A DNA stretch of 64,000 bases from a virus (IMGVR_UViG_3300035208_002606), one strand, 5' to 3'. Positions 17,334-29,393 are shown, counted from the first letter of the stretch. Made by a program: numbers and translations. Notes: a model not told the origin generated them from the sequence alone.

Positions 17334-17350
17334 ATCGGTGTGAGTAATTA

Positions 17351-17426
17351 TCGGGGTGTAGCGCAGTTGGTAGCGTATCTGCTTTGGGAGCAGAGAGTCG
17401 GAGGTTCGAACCCTCTCACCCCGACC
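17351..17426 (+). tRNA. tRNA-Pro(TGG), CCA encoded
   Basis: Acceptor cggggtg/caccccg, anticodon loop tttggga, T-arm ggaggttcgaaccctct; 10 nt downstream of extended -10 promoter. Confidence 0.7.
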
Positions 17427-17448
17427 ATTTTTAAAAAGTTCGCAAAGG

Positions 17449-17478
17449 ACTTGACAAGTAGAAATTAGCATGTTATAC
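17449..17478 (+). promoter_or_regulatory. sigma70-type promoter TTGACA-18-TATACT
   Basis: cttgacaagtagaaattagcatgttatact. Confidence 0.45.
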
Positions 17479-17675
17479 TTGTCACGGATGATATGACCTA
17501 GCAGGATGCGGGTCTTAGGTTGTTTGACATTTTGGTTTTGTGGTTTTTGTGAAGTGGGGCCGGTAGTTTCCCGGTCTTGTATCGGGATGGTATCGCCCCC
17601 GCTTCTTTTTCCTGAAGAGGGTCGATACTCTTTTCGGTGCAGTTAGATGCATCGGGAGTATCGCCCCTCTTCATA

Positions 17676-17935
17676 ATTCAGCGGCGGTGTGGAAGGACAC
17701 ACTAGGAGAGTGAGTGAGGACAGGCCTGACTACGGGTTAGCGGAACAACCGCTCCTTCGGGTTCTCCTGAAATGGAGATTGAATGTCTGAAGATATCCCA
17801 ATAAGAAATGCTCAAAGCGTGAGTGGTGTTAGAAAAAAGTAGGTTTACCGCTCTAAGGCACGGCAATTTAATATTTGCATGCTTACATACGCAACGGAAG
17901 TCCCACAAGTAGGTATCAAGTCCTACCCGCTGAAT
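17676..17935 (+). ncRNA. family-E tRNA-like structured RNA element
   Basis: Terminal helix attcagcgg/ccgctgaat; 5' hairpin gtgtg-GAAGGA-cacac; 3' hairpin gtagg-tatcaagt-cctac; U-tail. Confidence 0.4.
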
Positions 17936-18029
17936 TTTTAATCTAACCGCTTCGCCGTTGTGCGGCCTCCTGAAACATGGAAAAACAACGGCACTTGCAA
18001 TATTACTTCTTAATACTTTACTTTTATAT

Positions 18030-18105
18030 GGGGCCGTGGCAGACAAGTAGGTGCGTCTCGTTGTCAGCGAGGAATATGGGGGTGCGATTCCCCTCGACCC
18101 CGCCA
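18030..18105 (+). tRNA. tRNA-Asp(GTC), CCA encoded, non-canonical D/T loops
   Basis: Acceptor ggggccg/cgacccc, anticodon stem tctcg/cgagg, loop ttgtcag, T-loop tgcgatt, D-loop lacks GG. Confidence 0.45.
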
Positions 18106-18304
18106 AGCATTATTACGATGGGTTTTACAGCGTTAGGGCCATCATAAAAACAAGAAACTGTACTGAGGAGGGTTTTTCCGTGTTGTGCCTCAATAAAAAG
18201 AAACGGACTTTGCACTTTTTGTTCGTTACCAAGTGTAACGAACCCACAGAGGTTTCGTTCGCCTGAACCCGTCTGACGAATCAGGCGAAGATTATATCTC
18301 ACCT

Positions 18305-18456
18305 ATCAGCAGGTGGAAGGACACCGCATCGTGGAAGAGGAACTACTTTCCAACATCGGAGAGAAGCCCCTGGCCTCAAGACTAGGCAGTAGAATTCATG
18401 GGTCCATCACGATGGCTACATCTGAAGGAGTCAGCGGGTGTCGAGTCCCGCCTGAT
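18305..18456 (+). ncRNA. family-E element
   Basis: atcagc.../...cctgat termini; ggtg-GAAGGA-cacc hairpin; 3' hairpin gcggg-tgtcgagt-cccgc. Confidence 0.35.
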
Positions 18457-19111
18457 TGGTTATTAGTTAAGGTTTTCGGTGAACCTCCTAAGGTCGTACA
18501 GCGACCAAGGGTTATCGTACGTAAAAACCGAATTGGAATAGAGTAGGTTGGGGAAAGACGCCTAGGGTCTCCTGACCGAATTGGCTTTTGTGTCGTTGTG
18601 CCGCACCCACTTGATATCGTGGGCAGAGAAAACAACGGCTTGGAGTTCTTTGCCGTTATCCACCAATTCCATCGGCAGATAGGGTTGGTATTAAAAAATC
18701 AACGGCTTCCAATTTGATTTTACTGATTCTTTAAAAGAATCGGAAAACATAAAATGAGGCTTTCCGTTGTGCCATCCATCACCAAGTACCTAGAGTCGGG
18801 TTAATGGGAAAACAACGGGTTTCATTTTATTATCCTTGTTGTCCTTTATTGAGGTTAGCGGTGAGCCGCAAGAAGTGGTACTCGGAACTCCAATCCTAGC
18901 ACCTATGCTTGAAAAACCGCTGAGGTCAATGGCATTAATTTAGCAATGTATATATTGAGGCGAGAACGGGAGTAGAAATTGGGTTCTCCCTAATTCTGAC
19001 CTATTCCCATTCTCACTTCAAGCATTACTATCGCAGGAGGGAGGTCAATATCTCAGGTGGTTTCATATGCCATCTTAAAGTCGTGTAACTCGGCTTCCTG
19101 CTAGAAAATTA

Positions 19112-19188
19112 TCGCAGAGTATCCTAGTGGCTAAGGAATGAGTTTCATAAACTCGGAGCCGAAGGTTCGAATCCTTCCTCTGCGACCA
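19112..19188 (+). tRNA. tRNA-Met(CAT), CCA encoded
   Basis: Acceptor tcgcaga/tctgcga, loop ttcataa, T-arm gaaggttcgaatccttc. Confidence 0.7.
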
Positions 19189-19198
19189 AAGCAATTTT

Positions 19199-19287
19199 AC
19201 CGAAGGACGGTAGCCCCGTTTCCGCAAGAATAGGCATCGGCTAGCAAAACTATTCCATAGGAATGAGAGTAGCCTCTCATCTTCGGT
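19199..19287 (+). ncRNA. family-E-like element (divergent)
   Basis: accgaag/cttcggt termini, 3' hairpin tgaga-gtagcc-tctca, T-tract. Confidence 0.3.
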
Positions 19288-19294
19288 TTTTTAT

Positions 19295-19365
19295 GGCCCT
19301 ATCGGCTAATAGTAGGCCGCTTCCCTTTCAAGGAAGAAACGTCGGAGCGTAACCGGCTAGGGCTA
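19295..19365 (+). tRNA. tRNA-Glu(TTC)-like, non-canonical T-loop agcgtaa
   Basis: Acceptor ggcccta/tagggct, anticodon stem cttcc/ggaag, loop ctttcaa. Confidence 0.45.
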
Positions 19366-19378
19366 CTTAATTTTTTTC

Positions 19379-19449
19379 GTCCCTATCGGCTAATAGTAGG
19401 CCACTTCACTCTCAATGAAGAAACCTCAGAGCGTAACTGAGTAGGGATA
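19379..19449 (+). tRNA. tRNA-Glu(CTC)-like, tandem paralog of preceding
   Basis: Acceptor gtcccta/tagggat, loop ctctcaa, T-arm ctcag-agcgtaa-ctgag. Confidence 0.45.
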
Positions 19450-19466
19450 CTTAGCAATTTTATGTA

Positions 19467-19610
19467 TGGAGCGGGTCTTGAAAAACACAAGAACGTCTCG
19501 GAAAATAGGGGTTGAAGGCACCCCAACGATACGGGTAACGAAAAAAGGAGCAGTAGCCCTTTACAACCTATAAAGGGGACTTCCTTATGGGTGAAATTCC
19601 CATCGCTCCA
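19467..19610 (+). ncRNA. family-E-like element (divergent)
   Basis: tggagcg/cgctcca termini, 3' hairpin atggg-tgaaatt-cccat. Confidence 0.3.
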
Positions 19611-19623
19611 CTTGCAATTTTAT

Positions 19624-19751
19624 GCGCGGGGTCCGATTGGGTGACATTCCCACGAACTAGTTTCGCCATCAGGGAGTGATGCCCCAAAGTGGTGCAACGA
19701 AAAAGGTGAGGAAATCGCATCCCTTTAGACGGTGGAACTCCGTCCCTGCGC
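19624..19751 (+). ncRNA. family-E-like element (divergent)
   Basis: gcgcgggg/ccctgcgc termini, 3' hairpin gacgg-tggaact-ccgtc. Confidence 0.3.
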
Positions 19752-19765
19752 TTTTAAATTTTTAA

Positions 19766-19836
19766 GCCCGATTAGTTTAAAAGTAAAACGCAATCCTGAT
19801 AAGGTTGATACGGTGGAGCGTTACCATCATCGGGCA
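19766..19836 (+). tRNA. tRNA-Ile(GAT), non-canonical class
   Basis: Acceptor gcccgat/atcgggc, AC stem caatc/ggttg, loop ctgataa, T-loop agcgtta. Confidence 0.45.
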
Positions 19837-19840
19837 TTTA

Positions 19841-19925
19841 TGCCGTAGTAGTCTAGCAGCAATGACAGCAGACTGTAAATCTGCCCCTCGTAAGAGGTTC
19901 GTAGGTGCGAGTCCTTCCTGCGGCA
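19841..19925 (+). tRNA. tRNA-Tyr(GTA), class II, non-canonical T-loop
   Basis: AC arm gcaga-ctgtaaa-tctgc, variable hairpin cctc-gtaa-gagg, acceptor gccgtag/ctgcggc. Confidence 0.5.
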
Positions 19926-20253
19926 CTTTGTTTTGTTCTTTAGTCAGTCCACCTTGAGAGAGATACGCTTCAGCGGCTCTCTAAGTTTTGTCCGTCTTTA
20001 TTAGACAGATGGGCTTGTGGACGCTTTAGAATTCGTTGGCGGTGTGTAGGGCGTGTAGTTTTGAATGCGACTAGACAAACGGATGCCCTATGTCAGCGAA
20101 GATAAATTATAATTAGATATTAATTAGAATGGGAACCTTAGGGCGTTGAATTGTGTCGCAGGGTCAATTGCTCTAAGGGGATGAGTTTGGATTAACGGGC
20201 GGTGGAGCCGACCATTGTTTAGGCGTTGAAGCCGCCCGAAATTTTTGTCGTGT

Positions 20254-20324
20254 AGCCGCATAAGTTAAAGGCAAACTGGTTCACTTATAATGGACTCATC
20301 CTAGTTCGATTCTAGGTGCGGCTA
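20254..20324 (+). tRNA. tRNA with anticodon TAT (Ile-like)
   Basis: Acceptor agccgca/tgcggct, D-arm agtt-aaaggca-aact, loop cttataa, T-arm cctag-ttcgatt-ctagg. Confidence 0.4.
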
Positions 20325-20574
20325 GTTTTGTATTATCCAAAGGGAATGAATGGACGGAGTAATTAACCGAAAGTTTATTTTCCTTTGAATGAGATAAAGG
20401 GAGTCTAGATTCCCTTTTGAAGAGGATACCCTTTCGTCTAGTGGTTAGGACGGCGGCGCATTGCCGTTAACTTGGGTTCGAATCCCAACAGGGTTTTAGG
20501 ATGGCGGTTTGGGAGTTCATCTGTCTAGACAGAAGAATGTAAGTCCGTCTCCCCTCTTCTTTTTTATTTCAAAG

Positions 20575-20585
20575 TGTGGTATAAT
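20575..20585 (+). promoter_or_regulatory. extended -10 promoter upstream of tRNA-Ala
   Basis: gtgtggtataat. Confidence 0.55.
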
Positions 20586-20593
20586 AGAAGTAT

Positions 20594-20669
20594 GGGCGAT
20601 GGGACTGCTTGGGGTGGTCGCCTCACTTGCAATGAGGATATCAGGCGAGTTCGAATCTCGCATCGTCCA
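20594..20669 (+). tRNA. tRNA-Ala(TGC)
   Basis: Acceptor gggcgat/atcgtcc, AC arm cctca-cttgcaa-tgagg, T-arm gcgag-ttcgaat-ctcgc; extended -10 promoter 9 nt upstream. Confidence 0.65.
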
Positions 20670-20721
20670 CATTTTGAACCTAAATATTTTTCAAAACACT
20701 AAATAATAGTAAAGGTTCAAA

Positions 20722-21783
20722 ATGAAACAACGGCAAGGGATGAGTTATTCTGAGGCGGGGAAATTAGGAGCAAAAATAGGTTGTGAAATTGTTCAAAACA
20801 AATGGCAAAAAATTATCAAGGAATATGATAAAAACCCAAATCATTGTATAGTTTGTAATAAATCATTATCTTATTACAAACGTAATAAACAATTTTGCGG
20901 TTCTTCTTGTTCAGCAACTTATAATAACCAACATAGATTTTTTAAACCATCGGAAGATAAAAGAACAAAAATAATAAAATGTGCTAAATGTGGGAAAGAA
21001 ATAGAAGAAAATATTAGAGCAGGAAAAAATACAAAGTGCAGTAATTGTAAAACACAAATAAAAACAATAAAAATTATCAAAATAAATGGCAAAGAAACAA
21101 AAATTATAAGAAAAATAAGAAATCCTAAAATTCCAAAATTATGTAAATATTGTGGTCAGGAAAAATGCTTACGTCCTGATATATGTAGAAAACATCAATT
21201 ATTTCCAGCATTGATAAATTATTTCGGACTTAATAAATCTAAAATAGGAACAATTGATTTTTATGAAGAATTTGATAGAATACGAAATAAACTCATTGAG
21301 GAATATATAAATCAAAAAAGGAGTCTTGTTGAATTAAAGGAAAAATATAACCACCACGATATAAGAAATTTTAACAAACTTTTTGATAGTTTAAAAATTC
21401 CTAAACGAAATAATTCTGATTCCGTAAGAAATGCGGTTTTTAATGGTCGATATAAATTACCATCAGCACAATATCCATATAAACACGGTTGGCATACAAC
21501 TTGGGATAACAAAAAAGTTTTTTATCGTAGTTCTTACGAATTAGATTATGCAAAAGAACTAGATAAACAACAAATAGAATACGAAATGGAAAAATTAAGG
21601 ATACTTTATTGGGACAGCCAAAGACAAATACAACGAGTGGCAATTCCCGACTTTTATTTACCCAAGCAAAATAAAATAGTAGAAATAAAAAGTCCGTGGA
21701 CTTTGGACAAACAAAATATGAAGGATAAGGAAAAAGCATATAAAGAACACGGATATGTATTTGAATTAATTGTTGGAAAATAA
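20722..21783 (+). CDS. PD-(D/E)XK-family endonuclease with N-terminal Cys-rich zinc-finger region
   Basis: C-terminal ...IPDFYLPKQNKIVEIKS (PD...E-x-K); multiple CxxC pairs N-terminally; paralog at 23883. Confidence 0.5.
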   Translation: MKQRQGMSYSEAGKLGAKIGCEIVQNKWQKIIKEYDKNPNHCIVCNKSLSYYKRNKQFCGSSCSATYNNQHRFFKPSEDKRTKIIKCAKCGKEIEENIRAGKNTKCSNCKTQIKTIKIIKINGKETKIIRKIRNPKIPKLCKYCGQEKCLRPDICRKHQLFPALINYFGLNKSKIGTIDFYEEFDRIRNKLIEEYINQKRSLVELKEKYNHHDIRNFNKLFDSLKIPKRNNSDSVRNAVFNGRYKLPSAQYPYKHGWHTTWDNKKVFYRSSYELDYAKELDKQQIEYEMEKLRILYWDSQRQIQRVAIPDFYLPKQNKIVEIKSPWTLDKQNMKDKEKAYKEHGYVFELIVGK

Positions 21784-21787
21784 TCGC

Positions 21788-21858
21788 GCCCCACTAGTTC
21801 AATAGCAGAACGCATCACCTGTAATGATGATATGCGGGTGCAATTCCTGCGTGGGGCT
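21788..21858 (+). tRNA. tRNA-Thr(TGT), C33, non-canonical T-loop tgcaatt
   Basis: Acceptor gccccac/gtggggc, D-arm gttc-aatagca-gaac, AC arm catca-cctgtaa-tgatg. Confidence 0.45.
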
Positions 21859-21863
21859 TTTTT

Positions 21864-21935
21864 GCACACTTAGTTCAATCAGTAGAACATGACCCTCGTA
21901 AAGTCGAAACAGCGGAGCATAACCGTTAGTGTGCT
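21864..21935 (+). tRNA. tRNA-Thr(CGT), non-canonical T-loop agcataa
   Basis: Acceptor gcacact/agtgtgc, D-arm gttc-aatcagta-gaac, loop ctcgtaa. Confidence 0.45.
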
Positions 21936-21947
21936 TTGAAATTTCAT

Positions 21948-22018
21948 GCCGCCGTAGTTCAATGGCAGAACGCTTGTTCGGTAAACAAGAGACAATTGTT
22001 CGATTCAATTCTGCGGCT
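21948..22018 (+). tRNA. tRNA-Thr(GGT)
   Basis: Acceptor gccgccg/ctgcggc, AC arm cttgt-tcggtaa-acaag, T-arm aattg-ttcgatt-caatt. Confidence 0.55.
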
Positions 22019-22112
22019 CCACATTTACATCTATCTCATCTACCATAATCGTGTGTGGCGATTACTGAGAGTAGAAAGAGTTGGGCCATCGTTATGCGTT
22101 GGCCTTTCTGAT

Positions 22113-22207
22113 ATCGACAGAGGCATAAACAATTCAAAATTTATGTCGCATCCTTCGTTTGGGTGCAAGCGTGGTACGTTAGTGTCGGGTTACGCCGACC
22201 TGTCGAT
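22113..22207 (+). ncRNA. family-E element (short)
   Basis: atcgacag/ctgtcgat termini; 3' hairpin gtcgg-gttacg-ccgac. Confidence 0.35.
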
Positions 22208-22220
22208 TTTAATTATGATA

Positions 22221-22417
22221 ACCGACAGCGGCGTGGAAGGACACGCAAGACGAGGTTGTGAATGCTAGGAACTGCGGAATTGTCCACCGCTATCCTTGGC
22301 CTCTTGGTGATGCCCTATTTAATCGGGATGAACTCCGTAGAGAAGCATCATAAGCCCATGAAATGACATGGAACCAAGTGAGAGCATTCTAGTGGGTGTC
22401 GAACCCCACCTGTCGGT
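22221..22417 (+). ncRNA. family-E element
   Basis: accgacag/ctgtcggt; gcgtg-GAAGGA-cacgc; 3' hairpin gtggg-tgtcgaac-cccac; tttttta tail. Confidence 0.4.
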
Positions 22418-22435
22418 TTTTAGCATTTCATAATA

Positions 22436-22603
22436 ACCGCTAGCGGCGTGGAAGGACACGCCCATTATCTAATGAACATCTTAGGCCTAGCCCTTACAGG
22501 TTCGGGATGCGGTTGACGACCACATTGGCTGTGAGTAGGGAAGCAAATGGCAGGGGTAATTACCTGAAAATCTAGGAGTAGGTGTCGAATCCTACCTAGC
22601 GGT
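22436..22603 (+). ncRNA. family-E element
   Basis: accgctag/ctagcggt (compensatory change vs neighbours); gcgtg-GAAGGA-cacgc; gtagg-tgtcgaat-cctac. Confidence 0.4.
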
Positions 22604-22621
22604 TTTTAATTTGATTTTACA

Positions 22622-22801
22622 CTTGACAGCGGCGTGGAAAGCAGACACGCAGTTCATAGTGTGGGAAAAACTTTGGGTTGCAAATGAAAGCATCCTCCCG
22701 AGGACAAGCCCACATGGAAAGGAATGGAAACATTCTGGAATGCGAGGAGTAAGGCAGTAATAAGGGCATCGTAGAGTCGGAGTAGCGTCCGAACTGTCAA
22801 G
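22622..22801 (+). ncRNA. family-E element
   Basis: cttgacag/ctgtcaag; gcgtg-gaaagcaga-cacgc; 3' hairpin tcgga-gtagcg-tccga. Confidence 0.4.
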
Positions 22802-22832
22802 TTTATTTTGCAATTTTAAGAAGGAGGAAAAA

Positions 22833-23258
22833 ATGAATTATCGAAAAAAAGCATTTGAAGCATATCCCCATAAATGCGCTGTATGTGGATATGATAAATA
22901 CCCAGTACTTTTAGAAGTTCACCATAAAGATAAAAATAGGATGAACAATAATTTGGAAAATTTAGTAATTTTATGTATAACACATCACATGGAATTCCAT
23001 CTAGACCGTTTATGGTTAAATAGGAATAAACAGCGCATAGGTATTAATAAAGCAAAAAAACAAGGAAAATATAAAGGTAGGAAAAAGAAATTAACACATG
23101 AAGATTTAATGATAATAAAAGAAAGACTTCTAAATGGAGTAAAAAAAGCAAAAATTGCTAGAGAATTTAAAATTTCTAGAGCAACTTTATATTCATATAT
23201 TGGGTCTTGGGAAGTTACTGTAACTAGGACTATTACTGAAAAAAACATGCTCCCATGA
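22833..23258 (+). CDS. HNH endonuclease with C-terminal resolvase-type HTH
   Basis: CAVCGYD...EVHHKDKNRMNNNLENLVILCITHHMEFH; C-terminal GVKKAKIAREFKISRATLYSY HTH. Confidence 0.7.
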   Translation: MNYRKKAFEAYPHKCAVCGYDKYPVLLEVHHKDKNRMNNNLENLVILCITHHMEFHLDRLWLNRNKQRIGINKAKKQGKYKGRKKKLTHEDLMIIKERLLNGVKKAKIAREFKISRATLYSYIGSWEVTVTRTITEKNMLP

Positions 23259-23420
23259 TGTAATAGACAGCAACATACGCTTCGAACGTATGAGTTCGGG
23301 TGCAAATCCTGATGGGAGTGCTAGCATTATTAGATGGTGATAGGGGGCAACACCAACAAGTGCAGAACAGTCCGCTTCGAAAGAAGAAAGGAACATGACG
23401 GCTTGCTAAAGTCCCCTTTA

Positions 23421-23493
23421 AGCGAATTTGATGTAACAGTTAGCATCTGACCTTGCCAAGGTTAGCGTAAGGGTGCGAATCCCTTAATTCGCT
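23421..23493 (+). tRNA. tRNA-Gly(GCC), non-canonical T-loop tgcgaat
   Basis: Acceptor gcgaatt/aattcgc, D-arm gatg-taacagttag-catc, loop ttgccaa. Confidence 0.5.
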
Positions 23494-23499: not shown

Positions 23500-23584
23500 G
23501 ACAAGATGGCAGAGCGGTTTATTGTGGCAGTCTCGAAAACTGTTGGGTGTAACAGCCCCGAAAGTTCGAATCTTTCTCTTGTCG
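23500..23584 (+). tRNA. tRNA-Ser(CGA), class II
   Basis: Acceptor gacaaga/tcttgtc+G73, AC arm gcagt-ctcgaaa-actgt, long variable arm, T-arm gaaag-ttcgaat-ctttc. Confidence 0.65.
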
Positions 23585-23590: not shown

Positions 23591-23664
23591 GCACTCGTAC
23601 CGCAGAGGTTTAACGGGGCGGTCTGCAAAACCGTTATTCATTGGTTCGAATCCAATCGAGTGCT
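23591..23664 (+). tRNA. tRNA-Cys(GCA)
   Basis: Acceptor gcactcg/cgagtgc, loop ctgcaaa, T-arm attgg-ttcgaat-ccaat. Confidence 0.65.
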
Positions 23665-23678
23665 TTTTGAAATTTTAT

Positions 23679-23746
23679 GCGGGTATCGTCCAATAGTAGG
23701 ACTTCAGATTTCCACTCTGAAAATCTCGGCGCACATCCGGGTATCC
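23679..23746 (+). tRNA. tRNA-Gly(TCC), non-canonical T-loop
   Basis: Acceptor gcgggta/tatccgc, D-arm gtcc-aatagta-ggac, AC arm tcaga-tttccac-tctga. Confidence 0.45.
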
Positions 23747-23763
23747 GCTCTTTTATTATTTTA

Positions 23764-23838
23764 TGGCCTTGTGGCGCAACTGGATAACGCGTTGACCTGT
23801 TAAGTCAAGGATTGGTCGTTCAAATCGACTCAAGGCCG
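23764..23838 (+). tRNA. tRNA-Asn(GTT)
   Basis: Acceptor ggccttg/caaggcc, AC arm ttgac-ctgttaa-gtcaa, T-loop ttcaaat; followed by T9 run. Confidence 0.65.
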
Positions 23839-23882: not shown

Positions 23883-24875
23883 ATGAGAAAGGTTCGAAAC
23901 AAACATATATGTAAAAACTGTCAAAAAGAATTTATTCCCAAACAAGAAGCATTTTATAAATTTTGTTGTCAATCGTGTGCGGCTACTTATAATAATCAAC
24001 ATAGAATTTTTAAACCATCAGAAGACAAAAGAACAAAAATAATAAAATGCGCTAAATGTGGTAAAGAAATAGAAGTAAATATTAGGTCTGGTAAAAATAC
24101 AAAATGTGCCGATTGCAAAGAATATGTAAAAATTATCATCCCATCTACTAAAGGAAAAAGGTGGATAAAAAAGAAAACAATAAGAAATCGTAAAATTTAT
24201 CCATGTAAATATTGTGGGCAAGAAAAATGTTTACGGCCTGATATTTGTAAAAGATATCGTTTATTTCCTCGGCTTATAAAATATTTTGGATTGGACGAAA
24301 CCAAAATAGGAACAATTGAAATTTATGAAGAATTTGACCGCATAAGAAATAAACTCATTGAGGAATATTGGGACAAATTAACACCAATGGGTGATATTTG
24401 TAAACAATATAATTATTATGATAATGTTAGTAATTTTGCCTTTATTTTTAAATACCTAGACATCCCAAAAAGAACCCTTTCCGAAGCAGTAAGATTAAAT
24501 ATCAAAAATGGCAAATGCGTATCAACCCAAATAAACAACCAACGACCATATAAACACGGTTGGCACACTACTTGGGATAACAAACAGGTTTTTTACAGAA
24601 GTTCTTACGAATTAGATTATGCAAAAGAACTAGACGAACAAAAAATAGAATACAAAATGGAAAATCTTCGAATCCTTTATTGGGATAGCCAAAGACAAAT
24701 ACAACGAGTGGCAATTCCCGACTTTTATTTACCCAAGCAAAATAAAATAGTAGAAATAAAAAGTAAATTTACTTATAACGAACAAAATATGAAAGATAAA
24801 TTTAAATTTTATAAAGAACATGGATATAAAGTTAAACTAATTTTAGAACATAAAGAAATATTTATAGATTCATAA
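23883..24875 (+). CDS. PD-(D/E)XK-family endonuclease with N-terminal zinc-finger region (paralog of 20722-21783)
   Basis: Same C-terminal block ...YKHGWHTTWDNK...RVAIPDFYLPKQNKIVEIKS; CxxC pairs. Confidence 0.5.
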   Translation: MRKVRNKHICKNCQKEFIPKQEAFYKFCCQSCAATYNNQHRIFKPSEDKRTKIIKCAKCGKEIEVNIRSGKNTKCADCKEYVKIIIPSTKGKRWIKKKTIRNRKIYPCKYCGQEKCLRPDICKRYRLFPRLIKYFGLDETKIGTIEIYEEFDRIRNKLIEEYWDKLTPMGDICKQYNYYDNVSNFAFIFKYLDIPKRTLSEAVRLNIKNGKCVSTQINNQRPYKHGWHTTWDNKQVFYRSSYELDYAKELDEQKIEYKMENLRILYWDSQRQIQRVAIPDFYLPKQNKIVEIKSKFTYNEQNMKDKFKFYKEHGYKVKLILEHKEIFIDS

Positions 24876-24889
24876 TATGTTTTTATGTC

Positions 24890-24973
24890 GCTGAAGTGGT
24901 GGAAAGGTTTACACGCCGTCTTGAGGTGGCGGTGTCGAAAGGCATGAGCGTTCGAATCGCTCCTTCAGCACCA
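24890..24973 (+). tRNA. tRNA-Leu(GAG), class II, CCA encoded
   Basis: Acceptor gctgaag/cttcagc, loop ttgaggt, T-arm gagcg-ttcgaat-cgctc. Confidence 0.65.
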
Positions 24974-25096
24974 ATGTAATATTAATGAATGGTGATAAGC
25001 GAATGGTCGCCAGGTCGCACCTGAGTAGGTTCGATTCCTACGATTGCCGTGGTCGGTGCGGGGTTCGATTCCCCAATCGCCATTCATTCTTTTTAT

Positions 25097-25169
25097 GGCA
25101 AGGTCGCTTACGTGGTCATAGCGTCCCGCTGAAGACGGGAAAATGGGTGTTCGATTCACCCCCTTGCCA
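25097..25169 (+). tRNA. tRNA-Phe(GAA)
   Basis: Acceptor ggcaagg/ccttgcc, AC arm tcccg-ctgaaga-cggga, T-arm gggtg-ttcgatt-caccc. Confidence 0.65.
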
Positions 25170-25203
25170 TCGTCTATTTTACTAAATACTGTTAGAGGAC
25201 GAT

Positions 25204-25704
25204 ATGAAATTTAGAAAAGTAGAAGAATTATCCGATATCGAAATGATGAATAAAACTTCACGCCCTGATGATTATACATCGGTAACGACAAAGTTTATTC
25301 TTAGCACATTCAAACCCGAACAAGGTTTGACTTTCTTGGATTACGGAGCAGGAAAGAAGGCTACCCAAACAAAAAAATTATTGGAAGCAGGATACGATGT
25401 TACTGCTTATGAAATGGGTGGCAACGTAACTGAATTACATGATAAAAACGCATTAAATAAAAAATACGATGTCGCCTTCGCCTCTAATGTTTTGAATGTT
25501 CAACCAACAATGACATTAATCCGTCAAATGCTTGTAGAAATGAGCCTATCTTCAAAAAAATATATCATTATGAACTACCCAAGTTCACCTAGAAAGTTTA
25601 GAGACCATTTTATCAACAACAAAGAAATGAAAAAAATTATCGAAGATAACCTTGAGGGGGAAGTTAAAGTTTACCCCAACACAATTTTCGTTTATCAAAA
25701 GTAA
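25204..25704 (+). CDS. small class I SAM-dependent methyltransferase-like protein
   Basis: LTFLDYGAGKK motif I, acidic YE post-I, DVAFASNVLN motif; embedded in tRNA cluster. Confidence 0.5.
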   Translation: MKFRKVEELSDIEMMNKTSRPDDYTSVTTKFILSTFKPEQGLTFLDYGAGKKATQTKKLLEAGYDVTAYEMGGNVTELHDKNALNKKYDVAFASNVLNVQPTMTLIRQMLVEMSLSSKKYIIMNYPSSPRKFRDHFINNKEMKKIIEDNLEGEVKVYPNTIFVYQK

Positions 25705-25716
25705 TTCAAATTTTTT

Positions 25717-25799
25717 GCCGGGGTGGTGTAATGGCAGACACAGCAGACTCAAAATCTGCCGCTCGTATGGGCGTGTGGGTTCAACTCCCTCTCCCGGCA
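25717..25799 (+). tRNA. tRNA-Leu(CAA), class II
   Basis: Acceptor gccgggg/tcccggc, D-arm gtgt-aatggcag-acac, loop ctcaaaa; paralog of tRNA at 29184. Confidence 0.6.
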
Positions 25800-25806
25800 T
25801 TTTCAT

Positions 25807-25877
25807 GGAGTCGTATTTCAACGGAAGAAGGGCTGACTCTTAATCAGTAGATGTGGGTTCGATTCCCGCCGACTTCA
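25807..25877 (+). tRNA. tRNA-Lys(CTT)
   Basis: Acceptor ggagtcg/cgacttc, AC arm gctga-ctcttaa-tcagt, T-arm gtggg-ttcgatt-cccgc. Confidence 0.5.
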
Positions 25878-25892
25878 TTTGCAATTTTATAT

Positions 25893-25963
25893 GGGTCTAT
25901 ATGTCAACGGTAGACGAGTGGGCCTTTAACCCAAAGATGGGGGTTCGATTCCCTCTAGACTCA
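25893..25963 (+). tRNA. tRNA-Lys(TTT)
   Basis: Acceptor gggtcta/tagactc, loop cctttaa, T-arm ggggg-ttcgatt-ccctc. Confidence 0.5.
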
Positions 25964-25971
25964 TTTTTTAT

Positions 25972-26044
25972 GCCCTGTTAGTTCAATTGGACAGAACACA
26001 TCCCTACGAAGGATAAAATGGGGATTCAAATTCCTCACGGGGTA
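25972..26044 (+). tRNA. tRNA-Arg(ACG)
   Basis: Acceptor gccctgt/acggggt, D-arm gttc-aattggaca-gaac, loop ctacgaa, T-loop ttcaaat. Confidence 0.6.
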
Positions 26045-26067
26045 CTTTCTAAAAAATAAATAATAGT

Positions 26068-26385
26068 ATGCAAAAGAAGGTATATCTATTATGGTGGATT
26101 TTATTCGTCAATATCTTGGATATAATCGTAACCTATTATGCATTTCATAACGAATTGCCCGTAAAAGAAATAGGCCCATTGGGGGCAAGCAACTCCGCAC
26201 TCATCTTCGGGTCATTGTTTAATTTGTTTGTTATTTCCCTTTGTTATTATATTGTTAAAACATACAAAAAAACAAAGGCACTAATGTTCAGAATTTTTTC
26301 AGGATTGATTCTTTTTTGGGCAGTATTCGATACCGCCGTAATCATCAATAATTTTTGGGTGATTCTTCAAGTCCTGCGGGGTTAA
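26068..26385 (+). CDS. small integral membrane protein
   Basis: 105 aa, three hydrophobic segments. Confidence 0.4.
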   Translation: MQKKVYLLWWILFVNILDIIVTYYAFHNELPVKEIGPLGASNSALIFGSLFNLFVISLCYYIVKTYKKTKALMFRIFSGLILFWAVFDTAVIINNFWVILQVLRG

Positions 26386-26451
26386 TTCAGCGGCTAGAAT
26401 GTCGGTCCTACAAACCGAACATCGGGGGTTCGAGTCCCTCACCCCGCACCA
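26376..26451 (+). tRNA. tRNA-Val(TAC), CCA encoded
   Basis: Acceptor gcggggt/accccgc, AC arm tcggt-cctacaa-accga, T-arm ggggg-ttcgagt-ccctc. Confidence 0.6.
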
Positions 26452-26469
26452 TTTTTCACTAAATAACAG

Positions 26470-27049
26470 TATGAAGTTCAAAATCATGGAATACAACAAA
26501 GACATTTACAATCAGCGTCCCGACACTTCGGGAAAGTTCAACAGGGGTGCTTATCGTGAGCCTACATTCAACAGGGAGAAGGATTACAAAGAATCGAAAG
26601 CATCTGAATTGGAAGTGCGTGAGTATTTTATTTCCAAGGGGTTCGAGTTCGTGAAGGAAGGCGGCATCATGTACGATGCCATGTTCAAGTGTACGAAGGA
26701 GCCTTTTAATCTTGAAGGTTGGGAAGTCAAGAAATATTGGACTGCCGAAGTCAAGGAAAGTTTCAAATCGCAACTCACGGGAAATGTCCCGATAGAATAT
26801 CAACAGCACGGGCATCCGACAGGAGTGGCGCAGACACAGGCAGATTTTTGGGTTGAAAAAATTCACGAGCCTAGCGGAAAAATATCGTTCGTGATAATGT
26901 GGACGAAAGACCTGAGAAAAATGATAGCAGAGAAAAAATATTTCAGGACTGCCTCAGGCGGCGACCCCGGAAGCGAAAGTTTGGTCTATCTTTTTAAAGT
27001 AGATGTGTTCAAACAACACGGAAAAATCCTAGACATTAAGACTTATTAG
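26470..27049 (+). CDS. hypothetical protein (MKFKIME start)
   Basis: ORF; first in-frame ATG at 26399 overlaps the tRNA, so start placed at MKFK ATG. Confidence 0.45.
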
Positions 27050-27143
27050 GGAAGATGGCAGAGCGGTTTAATGCATCTGCCTTGAAAGCAGACAAGGGTG
27101 CTAATACCATCCTTCAGGGGTTCGAATCCCTTTCTTCCCGCCA
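27049..27143 (+). tRNA. tRNA-Ser(TGA), class II, CCA encoded
   Basis: Acceptor gggaaga/tcttccc+G, AC arm tctgc-cttgaaa-gcaga. Confidence 0.65.
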
Positions 27144-27146
27144 TAT

Positions 27147-27231
27147 GAAAAGATGGCAGAGTGGACGATTGCATCCGCTTGGAAAGCGGAAGGGCATAAC
27201 AGCCTCAGAGGTTCGAATCCTCTTCTTTTCG
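27147..27231 (+). tRNA. tRNA-Ser(GGA), class II
   Basis: Acceptor gaaaaga/tcttttc+G, AC arm tccgc-ttggaaa-gcgga, T-arm agagg-ttcgaat-cctct. Confidence 0.65.
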
Positions 27232-27237
27232 TTTTAC

Positions 27238-27325
27238 GGTGAGTTGGCAGAGCGGTTGAATGCGGCATCCTGCTAAGATGTTGGGTGTAACAGCCCCGCA
27301 AGTTCGAATCTTGCACTCGCCGCCA
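27238..27325 (+). tRNA. tRNA-Ser(GCT), class II, CCA encoded
   Basis: Acceptor ggtgagt/actcgcc+G, loop ctgctaa, T-arm gcaag-ttcgaat-cttgc. Confidence 0.65.
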
Positions 27326-27329
27326 TTAC

Positions 27330-27403
27330 GCCCGTGTAGCCTAAGGGATGAGGCAACTGACTTCTAATCAGTTCTTATGGGAGTTCGAGTCTCTCCACGG
27401 GTG
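27330..27403 (+). tRNA. tRNA-Arg(TCT)
   Basis: Acceptor gcccgtg/cacgggt, D-arm gcct-aagggatg-aggc, AC arm actga-cttctaa-tcagt. Confidence 0.6.
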
Positions 27404-27411
27404 CTTGTATA

Positions 27412-27481
27412 GGGCCGTAACCCAATGGTTAGGGTCGTGGGCTTTGAACCCATTTATCTTCGTTCGAGTCGAAGCGGCCCT
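27412..27481 (+). tRNA. tRNA-Gln(TTG)
   Basis: Acceptor gggccgt/gcggccc, loop ctttgaa, T-arm cttcg-ttcgagt-cgaag. Confidence 0.55.
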
Positions 27482-27491
27482 GCATTATTTT

Positions 27492-27664
27492 ATCGACAGC
27501 GGCGTGGAAGGACACGCGAACCGAATCATGGGGGCAACGGACACCTGGCATGCCCCGATATCGCCCAGGATGTTTACTCCTAAATCGGGTAGGGCGAAGC
27601 ATAACACGCGGCGTTGCGGGACGCCGACCCATGATGTAGCCGGTATCAAGCCCGACCTGTCGAT
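27492..27664 (+). ncRNA. family-E element
   Basis: atcgacag/ctgtcgat; gcgtg-GAAGGA-cacgc; internal atcatgggg/ccccatgat helix; abuts tRNA-Arg(CCT). Confidence 0.4.
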
Positions 27665-27671
27665 TTTATTA

Positions 27672-27742
27672 AGCCCCTGTAGCGTAATGATAGCGCACAG
27701 GTTTCCTAAACCTACGGTCTAAGTTCGATTCTTAGCAGGGGT
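27672..27742 (+). tRNA. tRNA-Arg(CCT)
   Basis: Acceptor gcccctg/caggggt, loop ttcctaa, T-arm ctaag-ttcgatt-cttag; abuts 3' end of an E element. Confidence 0.45.
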
Positions 27743-27753
27743 ACGAATTATTT

Positions 27754-27826
27754 TAGCCGTTTGGTGAAATAGTTATCACATCTGCCTCTGAAGCAGATAT
27801 TCTTAGTGCGAATCTAGGAGCGGCTG
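27754..27826 (+). tRNA. tRNA-Gln(CTG), non-canonical T-loop tgcgaat
   Basis: Acceptor agccgtt/agcggct, D-arm gtga-aatagtta-tcac, AC arm tctgc-ctctgaa-gcaga. Confidence 0.5.
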
Positions 27827-27832
27827 TTTATA

Positions 27833-27906
27833 TTGGGTGGTAAGTCAATAGAAGACGCGTAGTATCGGAAACTACGAGTTGCGAGTGCAAGTCTCGCTCA
27901 CCCAAT
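27833..27906 (+). tRNA. tRNA-Pro(CGG), non-canonical T-loop tgcaagt
   Basis: Acceptor ttgggtg/cacccaa, AC arm gtagt-atcggaa-actac, T-arm gcgag-tgcaagt-ctcgc. Confidence 0.5.
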
Positions 27907-27989
27907 TTTTATGTTGACCGTAGCCAAGACAGCGAACGGCGATGCAGAACGCATCAGTTTAGGGGTGCAACCCCCTTCGGTCAACTCAT

Positions 27990-28061
27990 GGTGAGTGTAG
28001 TTCAACAGTAGAACGCCCGACTGTGAATCGGGGAATGCAAGGGCAGCACTTGTCACTCACC
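27990..28061 (+). tRNA. tRNA-His(GTG) with encoded G-1
   Basis: g|gtgagtg...cactcac|c (G-1:C73), D-arm gttc-aacagta-gaac, AC arm cccga-ctgtgaa-tcggg; unusual T-loop. Confidence 0.55.
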
Positions 28062-28067
28062 CCAAAT

Positions 28068-28150
28068 GCTGATATGGTGTAATTTGGTAGCCACGCTAGT
28101 CTTAGGAACTAGTCCTTAATTGGGTGTGGGTTCGAGTCCCTCTATCAGCA
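28068..28150 (+). tRNA. tRNA-Leu(TAG), class II
   Basis: Acceptor gctgata/tatcagc, AC arm ctagt-cttagga-actag. Confidence 0.6.
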
Positions 28151-28157
28151 CATTTAT

Positions 28158-28244
28158 GTCGATATGGCGCAAAGGGAGACGCAACGGTTTCAGAAACCGT
28201 CCGTTGGTCAACAGCGGCTATAGGTTCAAATCCTATTATCGGCA
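28158..28244 (+). tRNA. tRNA-Leu(CAG), class II
   Basis: Acceptor gtcgata/tatcggc, AC arm acggt-ttcagaa-accgt, T-arm atagg-ttcaaat-cctat. Confidence 0.65.
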
Positions 28245-28451
28245 CTTGTATTTTAATTTTTAAGGGAGGATATATGAAATGAAAATGAAAATCGAAACTC
28301 GTGGGACTCTTCCAAAGCGGAGTAGGAGACATTGGATTTTTACAATTTTTCCATCAATCTCATTATGTTATATTAAGCATGATAGTTTCAACATAGATAT
28401 GCGTTGGTTATTTTGGTCGTTAGAAATTCTTTTATTTTTTAAGGAGCAAGA

Positions 28452-29198
28452 ATGAAGAAAGATGACATCGGTAACAGAATGAAATCTGCATACGAGAACA
28501 GGACACGAATCTGTCTTCCCCGTAGGACAAACATCATCATCCGTATTGACGGCAAGGCGTTCCACTCTTATACCCGTGGAATGAAGAGGCCGTTTGATGA
28601 TGGGTTCATGGGAGACATGGATACAACTGCGGCCTACCTCTGCAAGAACATTCAGGGGGCTAAATTTGCGTTCGTGCAGTCAGACGAAATTTCAATCCTT
28701 CTGACCGACTACGACAAAATCACAACGGACGCATGGTTCGACAACAACGTGCAAAAGATGGCAAGTGTGTCAGCAAGTATGGCAACGAGAGCCTTCAATG
28801 AGGCAAGAATGAATAGAATTATTCGAACAGGAGAGGGGGAAATGAAGTGGGCAGAGTTCGACAGCAGGGTATTCCAAATTCCTGAGTGGCACGAAGTCGA
28901 GAACTACTTCATTTGGAGACAGCAGGACTGCGTTCGCAACAGTATTCAATCTGTTGCTCAATCCCTCTACTCTCACAAGCAACTCAACGGCAAAAATACG
29001 AACGAGATGCAGGAAATGATTTTCCAAAAGGGAATCAATTGGAACGATTACGACCCCAAGTACAAGAGGGGTCGAGCAATTGTGAAAGAGGAATACATTG
29101 GCGATTCGGCAGTTCCGCGCCATCGTTGGAAGTCTCAAGGTTGCCCTGTTCTTACGCAAGCAAGAGACTTCATTAAGTTTACAGCCGGGATGGTGTAA
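28452..29198 (+). CDS. Thg1-like protein (tRNA-His guanylyltransferase family; 3'-5' nucleotide addition / tRNA 5'-end repair)
   Basis: TNIIIRIDGKAFHSYTRGMKRPFDDGFMGDMDTTA...FAFVQSDEISILL matches the Thg1/TLP catalytic core; 3' end overlaps tRNA-Leu(TAA) by ~15 nt. Confidence 0.7.
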   Translation: MKKDDIGNRMKSAYENRTRICLPRRTNIIIRIDGKAFHSYTRGMKRPFDDGFMGDMDTTAAYLCKNIQGAKFAFVQSDEISILLTDYDKITTDAWFDNNVQKMASVSASMATRAFNEARMNRIIRTGEGEMKWAEFDSRVFQIPEWHEVENYFIWRQQDCVRNSIQSVAQSLYSHKQLNGKNTNEMQEMIFQKGINWNDYDPKYKRGRAIVKEEYIGDSAVPRHRWKSQGCPVLTQARDFIKFTAGMV

Positions 29199-29269
29199 TG
29201 GTAGCCACAGCAGACTTAAAATTTGCCGCTCGTATGGGCGTGTGGGTTCAAGTCCCTCTCCCGGCACCA
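29184..29269 (+). tRNA. tRNA-Leu(TAA), class II, CCA encoded
   Basis: Acceptor gccggga/tcccggc, loop cttaaaa; near-duplicate of tRNA-Leu(CAA) at 25717. Confidence 0.65.
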
Positions 29270-29270
29270 C

Positions 29271-29345
29271 GGGTCAGTCCGTTAATGGTTAAACGGTTGG
29301 TCTCCAAAACCAATCCTGGAGGTTCGAATCCTTCCTGACCCGCCA
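29271..29345 (+). tRNA. tRNA-Trp(CCA), CCA encoded
   Basis: Acceptor gggtcag/ctgaccc, D-arm ccgt-taatggttaa-acgg, AC arm ttggt-ctccaaa-accaa. Confidence 0.7.
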
Positions 29346-29393
29346 TTGTCTTATCAACCACAAAACCAAAATGTGAAGCAATCTGCTTCAAAG

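Follow-up and report, generated by a model that had tools for sequence, protein, structure and literature searches.

Why should one phage carry, side by side in a single gene cluster, tRNAs of two structural classes? The question is raised by a 64,000-nucleotide stretch of DNA (IMGVR_UViG_3300035208_002606; the window, below, means this whole stretch), which comes from a large phage and contains an island of tRNA genes, all on the + strand, at positions 17352-29345. A model reading the bare sequence (the original prediction) had reported about 37 tRNAs here, some of them with unusual D and T loops. We find that 13 of the 38 tRNA genes in the island carry A18 and G55 in place of the G18 and U55 that meet in the elbow of ordinary tRNAs. 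The best explanation of the whole, to which we give a probability of roughly 0.65, is that these genes would encode working tRNAs with an elbow of riboswitch type, and that this elbow may bring a benefit against host factors that read the T and D loops.

The genes were counted in three ways. ARAGORN at default settings reported 32 tRNA genes between 17352 and 29345, and Rfam model RF00005 at its gathering score (29 bits) reported 36, to which laxer filters added tRNA-Arg(TCG) at 40.8 bits. Our own cloverleaf parser, which used fixed 7/4/5/5-bp stems and a 7-nt T loop and left the lengths of the D loop and variable loop free, recovered all 37 Rfam hits and tRNA-Ala(TGC). The union is 38 solid genes with 38 distinct anticodons, none of them duplicated, for 20 of 20 amino acids; two further tRNA-like genes (20426-20497 and 27914-27985) are degenerate. 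The predicted count was one short, Arg-TCG at 23249-23320 having been overlooked, while coverage of all 20 amino acids held, as did an encoded CCA in several genes (there are 11) and an encoded G-1 in tRNA-His (G at 27990, opposite C73). A promoter scan of the island found no excess (33 against 29.5 in shuffles). The island itself is ordinary for a large phage; its elbow class is the interesting part.

In an ordinary tRNA, G18 inserts between T-loop residues 57 and 58 and bonds pseudouridine (Psi) 55, beside the G19:C56 pair, and G18, U54, Psi55 and C56 are near-invariant nucleotides. When the loops of the 38 window tRNAs were read in register, coupling between positions 18 and 55 was perfect: A18 occurred with G55 in 13 of 13 cases, and G18 with T55 in 25 of 25. 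The 13 are Asp, Glu-TTC, Glu-CTC, Ile-GAT, Tyr, Thr-TGT, Thr-CGT, Arg-TCG, Gly-GCC, Gly-TCC, Gln-CTG, Pro-CGG and His. All of their D loops contain A18-G19 (for example AATAGTA as against AATGGTA, or AATAGCA as against AATGGCA in a canonical neighbour), and all of their T loops contain G55-C56. Because C56, purine 57 and the G53:C61 pair are kept in all 13, the outer G19:C56 pair is intact. At 54:58, seven of the genes have T:A, four have A:T (both Glu, Ile-GAT and Thr-CGT; loops AGCGTAA, AGCGTTA and AGCATAA), His has G:G (GGCAGCA) and Gly-TCC has C:C (CGCACAT). The G18-U55 contact that is a feature of RF00005 tRNAs is thus absent from the 13, and its absence defines the variant. The original prediction of two structural classes within one cluster is borne out (13 A18/G55 against 25 G18/T55), as is its proposal of a coordinated change in the D/T tertiary contact, from G18:U55 to A18:G55 with G19:C56 retained. 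The twelve members that it named all stand, with Arg-TCG missing from its list; the D loops do lack GG, as it said, but they uniformly carry A18-G19 and have not merely lost a motif.

The non-canonical genes score lower with Rfam than the canonical ones (39.4-55.9 against 49-66 bits, a mean deficit of about 9 bits), and default ARAGORN misses seven of the 13. All 13 nonetheless lie above the 29-bit threshold, and scores below a pseudogene cut-off, which the original prediction had said would count against it, were not found with Rfam. U8, A14, R15, A21, U33, R57, G53:C61 and G19:C56 are kept as a conserved core (Thr-TGT has C33). Non-canonical genes are the island's sole decoders for Asp, Glu, Tyr, Gly and His, and the anticodon sets of the two classes are complementary. 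The discriminator bases (Gly U73, Gln G73, His C73 with G-1, Asp G73, and A73 in Pro, Tyr and Ile) conform to bacterial identity rules, and in both Glu tRNAs U13:G22 is retained and the variable loop has 4 nt. Broken stems, core loss, sub-threshold scores and redundancy, the usual marks of pseudogenes, were seen in none of the 13 and fit only the two degenerate genes. A covariance model trained solely on non-canonical tRNAs of other phages (R1) returned non-canonical window tRNAs as its eight best hits (54-74.5 bits, with canonical tRNAs at 51.6 or below), and found no further member of the class in the 64 kb. Conservation of this kind suggests that the 13 are most likely tRNAs built on a different elbow, which would be charged and would decode normally. 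Indirect signs of processing, charging and decoding are the discriminator bases, G-1 of His, the complementary anticodons and the CCA-adding enzymes encoded by the phage close to the island.

The same arrangement is present in related phages. A Thg1-like protein encoded within the island retrieved 14 loci from IMG/VR, and the closest three (L001-L003; 74-76% identity, contigs of 43-223 kb) have the same island, with the same gene order, both classes, and the further T loops GGCAGTA, GGCAGAG, AGCAAAG and TGCGACC. Among the 123 tRNAs of these three phages and the window, 82 were GG/T55, 37 were AG/G55 and none was GG/G55 (Fisher p ~1e-28 for the coupling, relatedness not being corrected for). 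More distant Thg1 loci (L007 and L009-L012) had canonical tRNAs only. Which anticodons are non-canonical varies among the four sister phages. Thr-GGT is canonical in the window and non-canonical in the syntenic gene of L002 (at 4922; loops AATAGCA / TGCAATT); the two genes are 89% identical outside the two loops and differ by G18A, U55G and G57A. Val-TAC switches class between L001 and L002 with 83% identity outside the loops, and Arg-TCG switches between related phages with 77%, against a background of 41% for unrelated tRNAs (99th percentile, 64%). Syntenic switches under the same anticodon at 77-89% identity therefore show that conversion occurs in place. In Val-TAC all seven changes fall within the two loops and the acceptor and T stems are identical, which looks like a copied patch. 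Pro-CGG has identical loops in all four phages, and its stem changes between phages are compensatory.

The class extends well beyond these sisters. A scan of IMG/VR for one A18 D arm (TAGTTCAATAGYAGAAC) found 82 stretches, of which about 55 are tRNAs, all but one of these with a G55 T loop. Distinct tRNAs in 80 loci seeded in this way numbered 343 with GG/T55, 146 with AG/G55 (109 of them without the seeded D arm) and seven apparent cross-types. Apparent combinations of G18 with G55 in the full set turned out, on re-reading, to be mostly A18-G19-G20 D loops, and true intermediates (A18 with U55) number two to four. In a control of 80 loci seeded on the canonical counterpart (TAGTTCAATGGYAGAAC), nine members were present among about 406 other tRNAs (2.2%), in eight of 63 tRNA-bearing loci, and no G55 tRNA lacked AG in its D loop. 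Some clusters are nearly pure (non-canonical/canonical 19/0 in L109, 16/1 in L083 and 14/0 in L025), with Rfam scores of 32-64 bits there. The flanks of non-canonical loci had no proteins in common with the window, apart from one locus that lies on the L002 contig, and many unrelated phages are therefore involved; the D arm GTTC-AATAGTA-GAAC is seen repeatedly, with many different anticodons, in many such phages. A tblastn search with all open reading frames (ORFs) of the window against about 110 loci found no protein travelling with the class. The class is not clade-specific.

Cellular genomes and isolate phages were also searched. One genome per bacterial or archaeal species was scanned for that A18 D arm with a G55 T arm after it; the 18 hits were all on metagenome-assembled contigs, mostly with several tRNAs in phage-like arrays, and with this one D arm the class was found in no isolate genome. 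BLAST of the 13 and of 108 diverse members against isolate phages gave mostly generic tRNA similarity and one true member, in Xanthomonas phage Kintu (PP313117.1, 42678-42749; 2995-3066 of locus L099). This tRNA-Gly(UCC), with D loop TTATAGAC and T loop AGCGTTA, lies between an annotated tRNA-Trp and tRNA-Arg and is unannotated in the GenBank record; it is found by ARAGORN and missed by Rfam at the gathering score. Pseudomonas phage PaP1, Streptomyces phage Moab and Xanthomonas phage X1 were considered as members and rejected once their loops had been read, the 18:55 contact being canonical.

Pooling gave 461 canonical and 230 non-canonical distinct tRNAs, counted with our own scanner (at least 20 of 21 stem pairs required) in loci seeded on one A18 D-arm sequence. 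All of the non-canonical tRNAs have purine 57 (230/230), 220 have G53:C61, 206 have U33, 204 have A14 and 195 have U8, rates similar to those of canonical tRNAs, and all 21 stem pairs covary across 90 diverse members, although the paired percentage is partly guaranteed by the selection filter. The class favours 7-nt D loops and 4-nt variable loops. It is found for all 20 amino acids, with enrichment for Thr, His and Ile and depletion for Ser, Trp, Asn, Leu, Tyr and Arg. Its T loops are of the types UGCRA (55), AGCRU (49), GGCRG (29) and CGCRA (11), and T occupies position 54 in 42% of the class as against 96% of canonical tRNAs. Default ARAGORN detects 455 of the 461 canonical tRNAs (99%), 112 of the 230 non-canonical ones (49%) and two of the 48 with G:G at 54:58 (4%). 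With half of the class missed by ARAGORN and the Kintu member omitted from GenBank, phage tRNA counts would be too low.

What kind of elbow could A18 and G55 form? The T loops of flavin mononucleotide (FMN) and cobalamin riboswitches have the consensus (YGNRA)NY, with UGNRA in 89% and CGNRA in 11%; between loop positions 4 and 5 the intercalating base is nearly always an adenosine, which is hydrogen-bonded twice to the sugar edge of G at position 2, the T loops of tRNAs being distinguished by U at that position and ribosomal RNA (rRNA) having a distinct GGAAG T loop (bioRxiv 10.1101/2022.12.26.521914). Three of the four T-loop types of the class were found to conform to a UGNRA-type pattern, with Y/G-G-N-R-A/G at positions 1-5 followed by two extra bases (TGCGA, TGCAA, GGCAG and CGCAC in the window). 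Because the UGCRA-N-U, CGCRA and GGCRG loops together with A18 match the pattern of riboswitches and rRNA, we infer an equivalent elbow. A18:G55 would replace G18:Psi55, with G19:C56, purine 57 and G53:C61 retained; A18 would intercalate and bond the sugar edge of G55 as in riboswitches and rRNA, and the L-shape would be kept by this equivalent contact. The covariation of A18 with G55 speaks for such a contact. The loop-closing position 54:58 would then be free to be U:A, A:U, G:G or C:A/C:C. The outer face of the elbow, G19:C56, is the stacking surface for RNase P, the ribosome and other elbow readers.

In a yeast suppressor tRNA, single mutations at G18, U55, G19, C56, U54 or A58 abolish function (PMC4117946), and intermediates would therefore be rare and the change coordinated. 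A functional alternative elbow is, from the pattern of conserved nucleotides, highly probable. Full-text literature searches found neither A18/G55 tRNAs nor a second class of elbow described for phage tRNAs, though most subscription journals lay outside their coverage and an earlier mention is possible.

Since the class has no U55, mostly no U54 and no G18, it lacks the sites of Psi55, 5-methyluridine 54 (m5U54) and 2'-O-methylguanosine 18 (Gm18), and these nucleotides would not be offered to enzymes or nucleases that read them. The likeliest benefit would be independence from, or invisibility to, host readers of the T and D loops (TruB, TrmA and TrmH, or tRNases directed at the elbow or T loop), and such evasion would belong to the tRNA arms race indicated by the neighbouring repair genes. 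We know of no nuclease that the elbow class would evade. There are precedents for factors that read the T and D loops: the toxin CdiA-CT E479 cleaves the T loop between T and Psi (PMC9086364), and a base substitution in the D loop (U16C) impairs cleavage by AriB (PMC12409363). We regard evasion or independence as a plausible driver and as the leading idea, at odds a little short of even. Three points lean towards selection over drift, namely that some clusters consist very largely of the class, that A or G is frequent at position 54, unlike in riboswitches, and that U55 is also lost by the independent C55 route described below. A broader version, in which the elbow is a widespread phage counter-measure, a self/non-self mark that hides tRNAs still active on the ribosome from a host factor or phage host-shutoff factor reading T-Psi-C/GG (a T-loop tRNase, a defence effector that reads the elbow, or TruB, TrmA and TrmH), appears doubtful to us; if true, the class would be a natural family of translation-competent tRNAs that are non-substrates of T-loop modification enzymes.

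Several points weigh against working tRNAs with an adaptive riboswitch-type elbow. That members of the second class would function as tRNAs is deduced from sequence conservation, and the pooled counts come from phylogenetically non-independent sequences gathered, as described, with a stem-pair filter and a single seed. The AGCRU subtype (49 members) falls outside the UGNRA-type consensus, and its A54:U58 is without precedent in the T-loop paper (bioRxiv 10.1101/2022.12.26.521914). A global threat to the elbow would be expected to convert all tRNAs; only about one-third of the island is converted, and membership differs between sisters. Finally, the class could be tied to no host factor or defence gene, and the regions flanking non-canonical loci share no proteins with the window.

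The main rival is a neutral second solution, in which A18:G55 is an equally good fold that drifts in and out without adaptive value. Phage tRNAs being redundant with those of the host, they could pass through the single-mutant stage despite its low fitness, or take over loop patches from neighbouring genes. The repeated flips of class among the four sister phages fit this idea, as do the patch-like conversion of Val-TAC, the mixed state of the window island and an overall frequency of about 2% in the unbiased-seed sample. On the other hand, drift would have difficulty in crossing a two-mutation valley to reach a share of 34% in the window phage and of nearly 100% in certain clusters, A or G often occupies position 54 where riboswitch T loops have about 89% U, and an independent second loss of U55 exists (C55 with GG). 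With the one D arm scanned, the class was also seen in no isolate genome of a bacterium, although the neutral path would be open wherever tRNA genes are redundant. On balance we consider neutral drift possible, at odds well below even.

A different origin, in which the non-canonical genes were imported as a block from a genome with only such tRNAs (another phage lineage or a cellular host), we consider improbable. Different-class pairs are on average less similar than same-class pairs (59% against 72% identity), and because of this greater divergence some replacements may have occurred; the contigs with class-only clusters, and the unrelated phages in which the D arm GTTC-AATAGTA-GAAC accompanies many anticodons, also speak for it. 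However, the window has its gene order in common with L002 and L003, the classes are interleaved with no single block, and the genome scan with one D arm gave only metagenome-assembled contigs, mostly phage-array-like, and no isolate chromosome. Different origins, which the original prediction had offered as one possibility, are not supported as a general explanation, since three syntenic pairs with the same anticodon switch class at 77-89% identity. Least likely is that the second class consists of pseudogenes, decoys or non-translational RNAs (enzyme sponges or primers), for although default ARAGORN misses seven of the 13, Rfam scores are about 9 bits lower on average, two clearly degenerate genes lie in the island and tRNAscan-SE-based annotation skipped the Kintu example, all 13 pass Rfam with perfect cloverleaves, conserved U8, A14, purine 57, G53:C61 and U33, fitting discriminators and compensatory stem changes, are sole decoders for five amino acids with no duplicate anticodon, and have counterparts elsewhere in whole clusters of the class.

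If the preferred reading of working tRNAs with a riboswitch-type elbow is correct, the tRNA elbow has a second evolutionarily accessible solution, otherwise that of riboswitches and rRNA. The class would give a testable link between phage tRNAs and host T-loop readers (TruB, TrmA, TrmH and T-loop tRNases) and would offer natural scaffolds for tRNAs that bypass T-loop modification, of use in tRNA engineering. Kintu provides a tractable cultured system in which to study it.

Other departures from the usual loops were noted. A third elbow variant, seen in ten distinct tRNAs of L027 (e.g. 808-880), L062, L079 and L084, combines a normal G18-G19 with T54-C55-C56 (TCCGAAT); C55 with a normal GG is a second, independent route to the loss of U55. 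Xanthomonas phage X1 (OQ427096.1, L100, 200 kb; e.g. 3131-3201, 3466-3537 and 8633-8703) has T loops ATCGTTA, ATCGAAA and ATCGATA with normal GG and U55; with A54 and T58 or A58 beside a normal contact, position 54:58 can therefore vary on its own. Arg(CCT) in the window and in L001 (5061-5131; D loop AATGACA, T loop TTAAACT, with A56) deviates in another way, at the 19:56 pair. In place of the near-universal U33, C33 is found in Thr-TGT, Lys-TTT and Val-TAC (21788-21858, 25893-25963 and 26376-26448), all with U34. The original prediction had placed it in several members of the second class; we rejected it as a class property, because two of the three tRNAs have canonical elbows and only Thr-TGT is non-canonical, and treat it as a separate feature. 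C33 is seen again in L002 and in 5-10% of the tRNAs of the phage clusters sampled, and may be related to nucleases that cut beside position 34.

Individual tRNAs of the sister phages are unusual in other ways. L003 has a tRNA (5339-5410) with anticodon TCA, which would read the UGA stop codon, on the scaffold of Arg-TCG of its sister L002 (5234-5305); its acceptor stem is weakened (5/7 pairs), and it could be a suppressor or a decaying copy. For L002 3798-3873 ARAGORN gives a four-base anticodon, 'caga', which implies an 8-nt anticodon loop and is possibly frameshift-suppressor-like or degenerate; a gene reported by Rfam only, L003 4167-4240, resembles it. No counterpart of the window's tRNA-like gene at 27914-27985 was found in L001-L003.

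The features of the window are listed in the Table. A megablast search of the island against 50,697 phage records found no match, and the large terminase (33362-35284, - strand) is <30% identical to that of any isolate. The RNA repair and maturation kit is unusually complete, comprising a ligase, a tandem pair of CCA-adding enzymes, a Pnkp-like kinase, a Thg1-like polymerase and an RlaP-family enzyme. The island also contains three endonuclease-like ORFs, of homing type. In T4, Pnkp and Rnl1 repair tRNA-Lys cleaved by the anticodon nuclease PrrC, and this gene set therefore suggests a phage facing tRNA damage.

Table. Coordinates of tRNA genes and other features in the window (NC, non-canonical A18/G55 elbow; C, canonical elbow; CCA, encoded CCA; R1, score with the class covariance model).
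Feature	Coordinates	Strand	Rfam (bits)	D loop / T loop	Remarks
tRNA-Pro(TGG)	17352..17427	+	66.4	AGTTGGTA / TTCGAAC	C; CCA
tRNA-Asp(GTC)	18030..18105	+	39.4	ACAAGTAG / TGCGATT	NC; CCA
tRNA-Met(CAT)	19113..19188	+	62.6	AGTGGCTA / TTCGAAT	C; CCA
tRNA-Glu(TTC)	19295..19365	+	49.6	AATAGTA / AGCGTAA	NC; A54:T58; missed by default ARAGORN; R1 73.3 bits
tRNA-Glu(CTC)	19379..19449	+	47.2	AATAGTA / AGCGTAA	NC; A54:T58; R1 69.2
tRNA-Ile(GAT)	19766..19836	+	50.7	AAAAGTA / AGCGTTA	NC; A54:T58; R1 74.5
tRNA-Tyr(GTA)	19842..19925	+	48.4	AGCAGCAA / TGCGAGT	NC; long variable arm
tRNA-Ile(TAT)	20254..20324	+	54.3	AAAGGCA / TTCGATT	C
Degenerate Met-like tRNA gene, probable pseudogene	20426..20497	+			ARAGORN only; acceptor 5/7 pairs; anticodon loop CGCATTG without U33; no Rfam hit at E<=1; R1 18.4 bits
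tRNA-Ala(TGC)	20594..20669	+			Canonical 18:55; G3:U70; atypical D arm; 7-nt variable loop; ARAGORN and cloverleaf parse (21/21 pairs), not reported by Rfam
Endonuclease-like ORF in island, likely homing endonuclease	20722..21783	+			Weak matches: DUF7487, Phage_endo_I, PHROG HNH and resolvase families
tRNA-Thr(TGT)	21788..21858	+	55.9	AATAGCA / TGCAATT	NC; C33; anticodon loop CCTGTAA
tRNA-Thr(CGT)	21864..21935	+	44.4	AATCAGTA / AGCATAA	NC; A54:T58
tRNA-Thr(GGT)	21948..22021	+	59.6	AATGGCA / TTCGATT	C
Small HNH_3 and HTH_7 endonuclease ORF in island	22833..23258	+			Pfam HTH_7 1.4e-9, HNH_3 7.6e-6
tRNA-Arg(TCG)	23249..23320	+	40.8 (lax filters)	AATAGACA / TGCAAAT	NC; found by ARAGORN
tRNA-Gly(GCC)	23422..23493	+	50.4	AACAGTTA / TGCGAAT	NC
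tRNA-Ser(CGA)	23500..23584	+	50.9		C
tRNA-Cys(GCA)	23591..23664	+	58.4		C in window, NC in L002 and L003
tRNA-Gly(TCC)	23679..23749	+	49.9	AATAGTA / CGCACAT	NC; C54:C58
tRNA-Asn(GTT)	23765..23838	+	57.4		C
Second endonuclease-like ORF in island	23883..24875	+			Same weak Pfam/PHROG families as 20722-21783; likened by profile matches
tRNA-Leu(GAG)	24890..24973	+	49.2		C; CCA
tRNA-Phe(GAA)	25097..25169	+	58		C
tRNA-Leu(CAA)	25717..25799	+	51.2		C
tRNA-Lys(CTT)	25807..25877	+	62.2		C
tRNA-Lys(TTT)	25893..25963	+	57.6		C; C33; anticodon loop CCTTTAA
tRNA-Arg(ACG)	25972..26044	+	55.7		C
tRNA-Val(TAC)	26376..26451	+	62.6		C; C33; CCA; anticodon loop CCTACAA
tRNA-Ser(TGA)	27049..27143	+	59.1		C; CCA
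tRNA-Ser(GGA)	27147..27231	+	56.5		C
tRNA-Ser(GCT)	27238..27325	+	50.7		C; CCA
tRNA-Arg(TCT)	27330..27403	+	55.5		C
tRNA-Gln(TTG)	27411..27482	+	60.9		C
tRNA-Arg(CCT)	27673..27743	+	62.3	AATGATA / 	T55 with G18-A19; normal C56
tRNA-Gln(CTG)	27755..27826	+	55.3	AATAGTTA / TGCGAAT	NC
tRNA-Pro(CGG)	27834..27905	+	41.7	AATAGAA / TGCAAGT	NC
tRNA-like gene, probably non-decoding	27914..27985	+		 / TGCAACC	Good acceptor stem and T arm; anticodon loop defective or 5-nt; ARAGORN at lowered threshold only; R1 12.2 bits, E 0.098
tRNA-His(GTG)	27990..28064	+	49.2	AACAGTA / GGCAGCA	NC; G54:G58; encoded G-1; CCA; missed by ARAGORN, lowered threshold included
tRNA-Leu(TAG)	28068..28150	+	52.2		C
tRNA-Leu(CAG)	28158..28244	+	49.2		C
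Thg1-like tRNA-His guanylyltransferase / 3'-5' polymerase, inside island	28452..29198	+			Pfam Thg1 2.6e-28 and Thg1C; PHROG 4717 5e-87
tRNA-Leu(TAA)	29184..29269	+	50.7		C; CCA
tRNA-Trp(CCA)	29271..29345	+	59.2		C; CCA
T4 Rnl1-type RNA ligase	8660..9865	+			Pfam RNA_lig_T4_1 1.4e-26; PHROG 562 2.6e-57
CCA-adding / poly(A) polymerase family nucleotidyltransferase with HD domain	12898..14286	+			Pfam PolyA_pol 3.8e-41, PolyA_pol_RNAbd, tRNA_NucTran2_2, HD
Second CCA-adding family nucleotidyltransferase	14283..15374	+			Pfam PolyA_pol 3e-35, PolyA_pol_RNAbd
Polynucleotide kinase-like protein	15344..15937	+			NCBIfam bacter_Pnkp kinase region 1.3e-10, well under family cut-off; PHROG polynucleotide kinase 1.6e-11
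RlaP-family nucleotidyltransferase	48338-49288

Two further elements were noted in and beside the island. A structured-RNA-like unit of 95-200 nt occurs in five copies in the window island (22112-22806 and 27492-27664), with a related hairpin at 18437-18453, and is also present in L002 (5073-5231, 9344-9479) and L003 (5179-5337, 8510-8763). It consists of a 5' strand, (A)ACCGACAG, a hairpin GCGTG-GAAGGA-CACGC, about 100 variable nt, a T-arm-like hairpin GTGGG-TGTCGAAC-CCCAC, a 3' strand CTGTCGGTT and a T run. Compensatory changes, with both sides of a pair altered, affect five of eight pairs in the 8-bp closing helix and two of five in the 3' hairpin, and the hairpin motif occurs three times against 0.05 expected. 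No Rfam match was found for the unit, which looks like the top half of a tRNA (acceptor and T arm) with a terminator. Just downstream of the island, a B12-binding/radical-SAM-like protein (30024-31250) is encoded beside a 194-aa ORF; the radical-SAM gene is conserved in L002 and L003, the 194-aa ORF was matched in L002 only, and a role for the protein in RNA modification is speculation.

How does the class compare with systems already known? It shares with canonical bacterial and phage tRNAs the 7/4/5/5-bp cloverleaf and U8, A14, R15, A21, U33, G53:C61, R57 and G19:C56, and differs from them in that 13 of the 38 window genes swap G18 and U55 for A18 and G55, with U54:A58 replaced in six of the 13. 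Psi55 has been called the most universally conserved tRNA modification (PMC7912444). The window island resembles those of T4, T5 and jumbo phages in its clustered tRNAs, homing-endonuclease-like ORFs, tRNA repair genes and coverage of all 20 amino acids. Pyrrolysine tRNA (tRNA-Pyl), metazoan mitochondrial tRNAs and the eukaryotic initiator tRNA (A54:A58) are likewise functional without some of G18, G19, T54, Psi55 and C56, or with an altered 54:58; in these the D and T loops are reduced or idiosyncratic, or special partners are involved, whereas the phage class has loops of normal size, G19:C56 and a two-state covariation of 18:55 across all amino-acid families. Phage tRNAs that escape defences, such as T5 tRNA-Lys in the face of the PARIS nuclease AriB and anticodon-loop variants (eLife 2023 e85183), are similar in being replacements that deviate at conserved positions with a repair toolkit nearby; the change there affects the anticodon stem-loop or a single D-loop base of particular species, whereas the phage class rebuilds the elbow pair across many families. 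A further likeness, in the loops, is to the T-loop modules of riboswitches and rRNA, in which UGNRA or CGNRA is followed by two flipped-out bases and an adenine is supplied by the partner loop, the GGAAG of rRNA being close to the GGCAG of the class. Those modules belong to riboswitches and rRNA and not to tRNAs, and the contact in the phage class is a predicted one; in the class, position 3 of the loop remains C, paired to G19.

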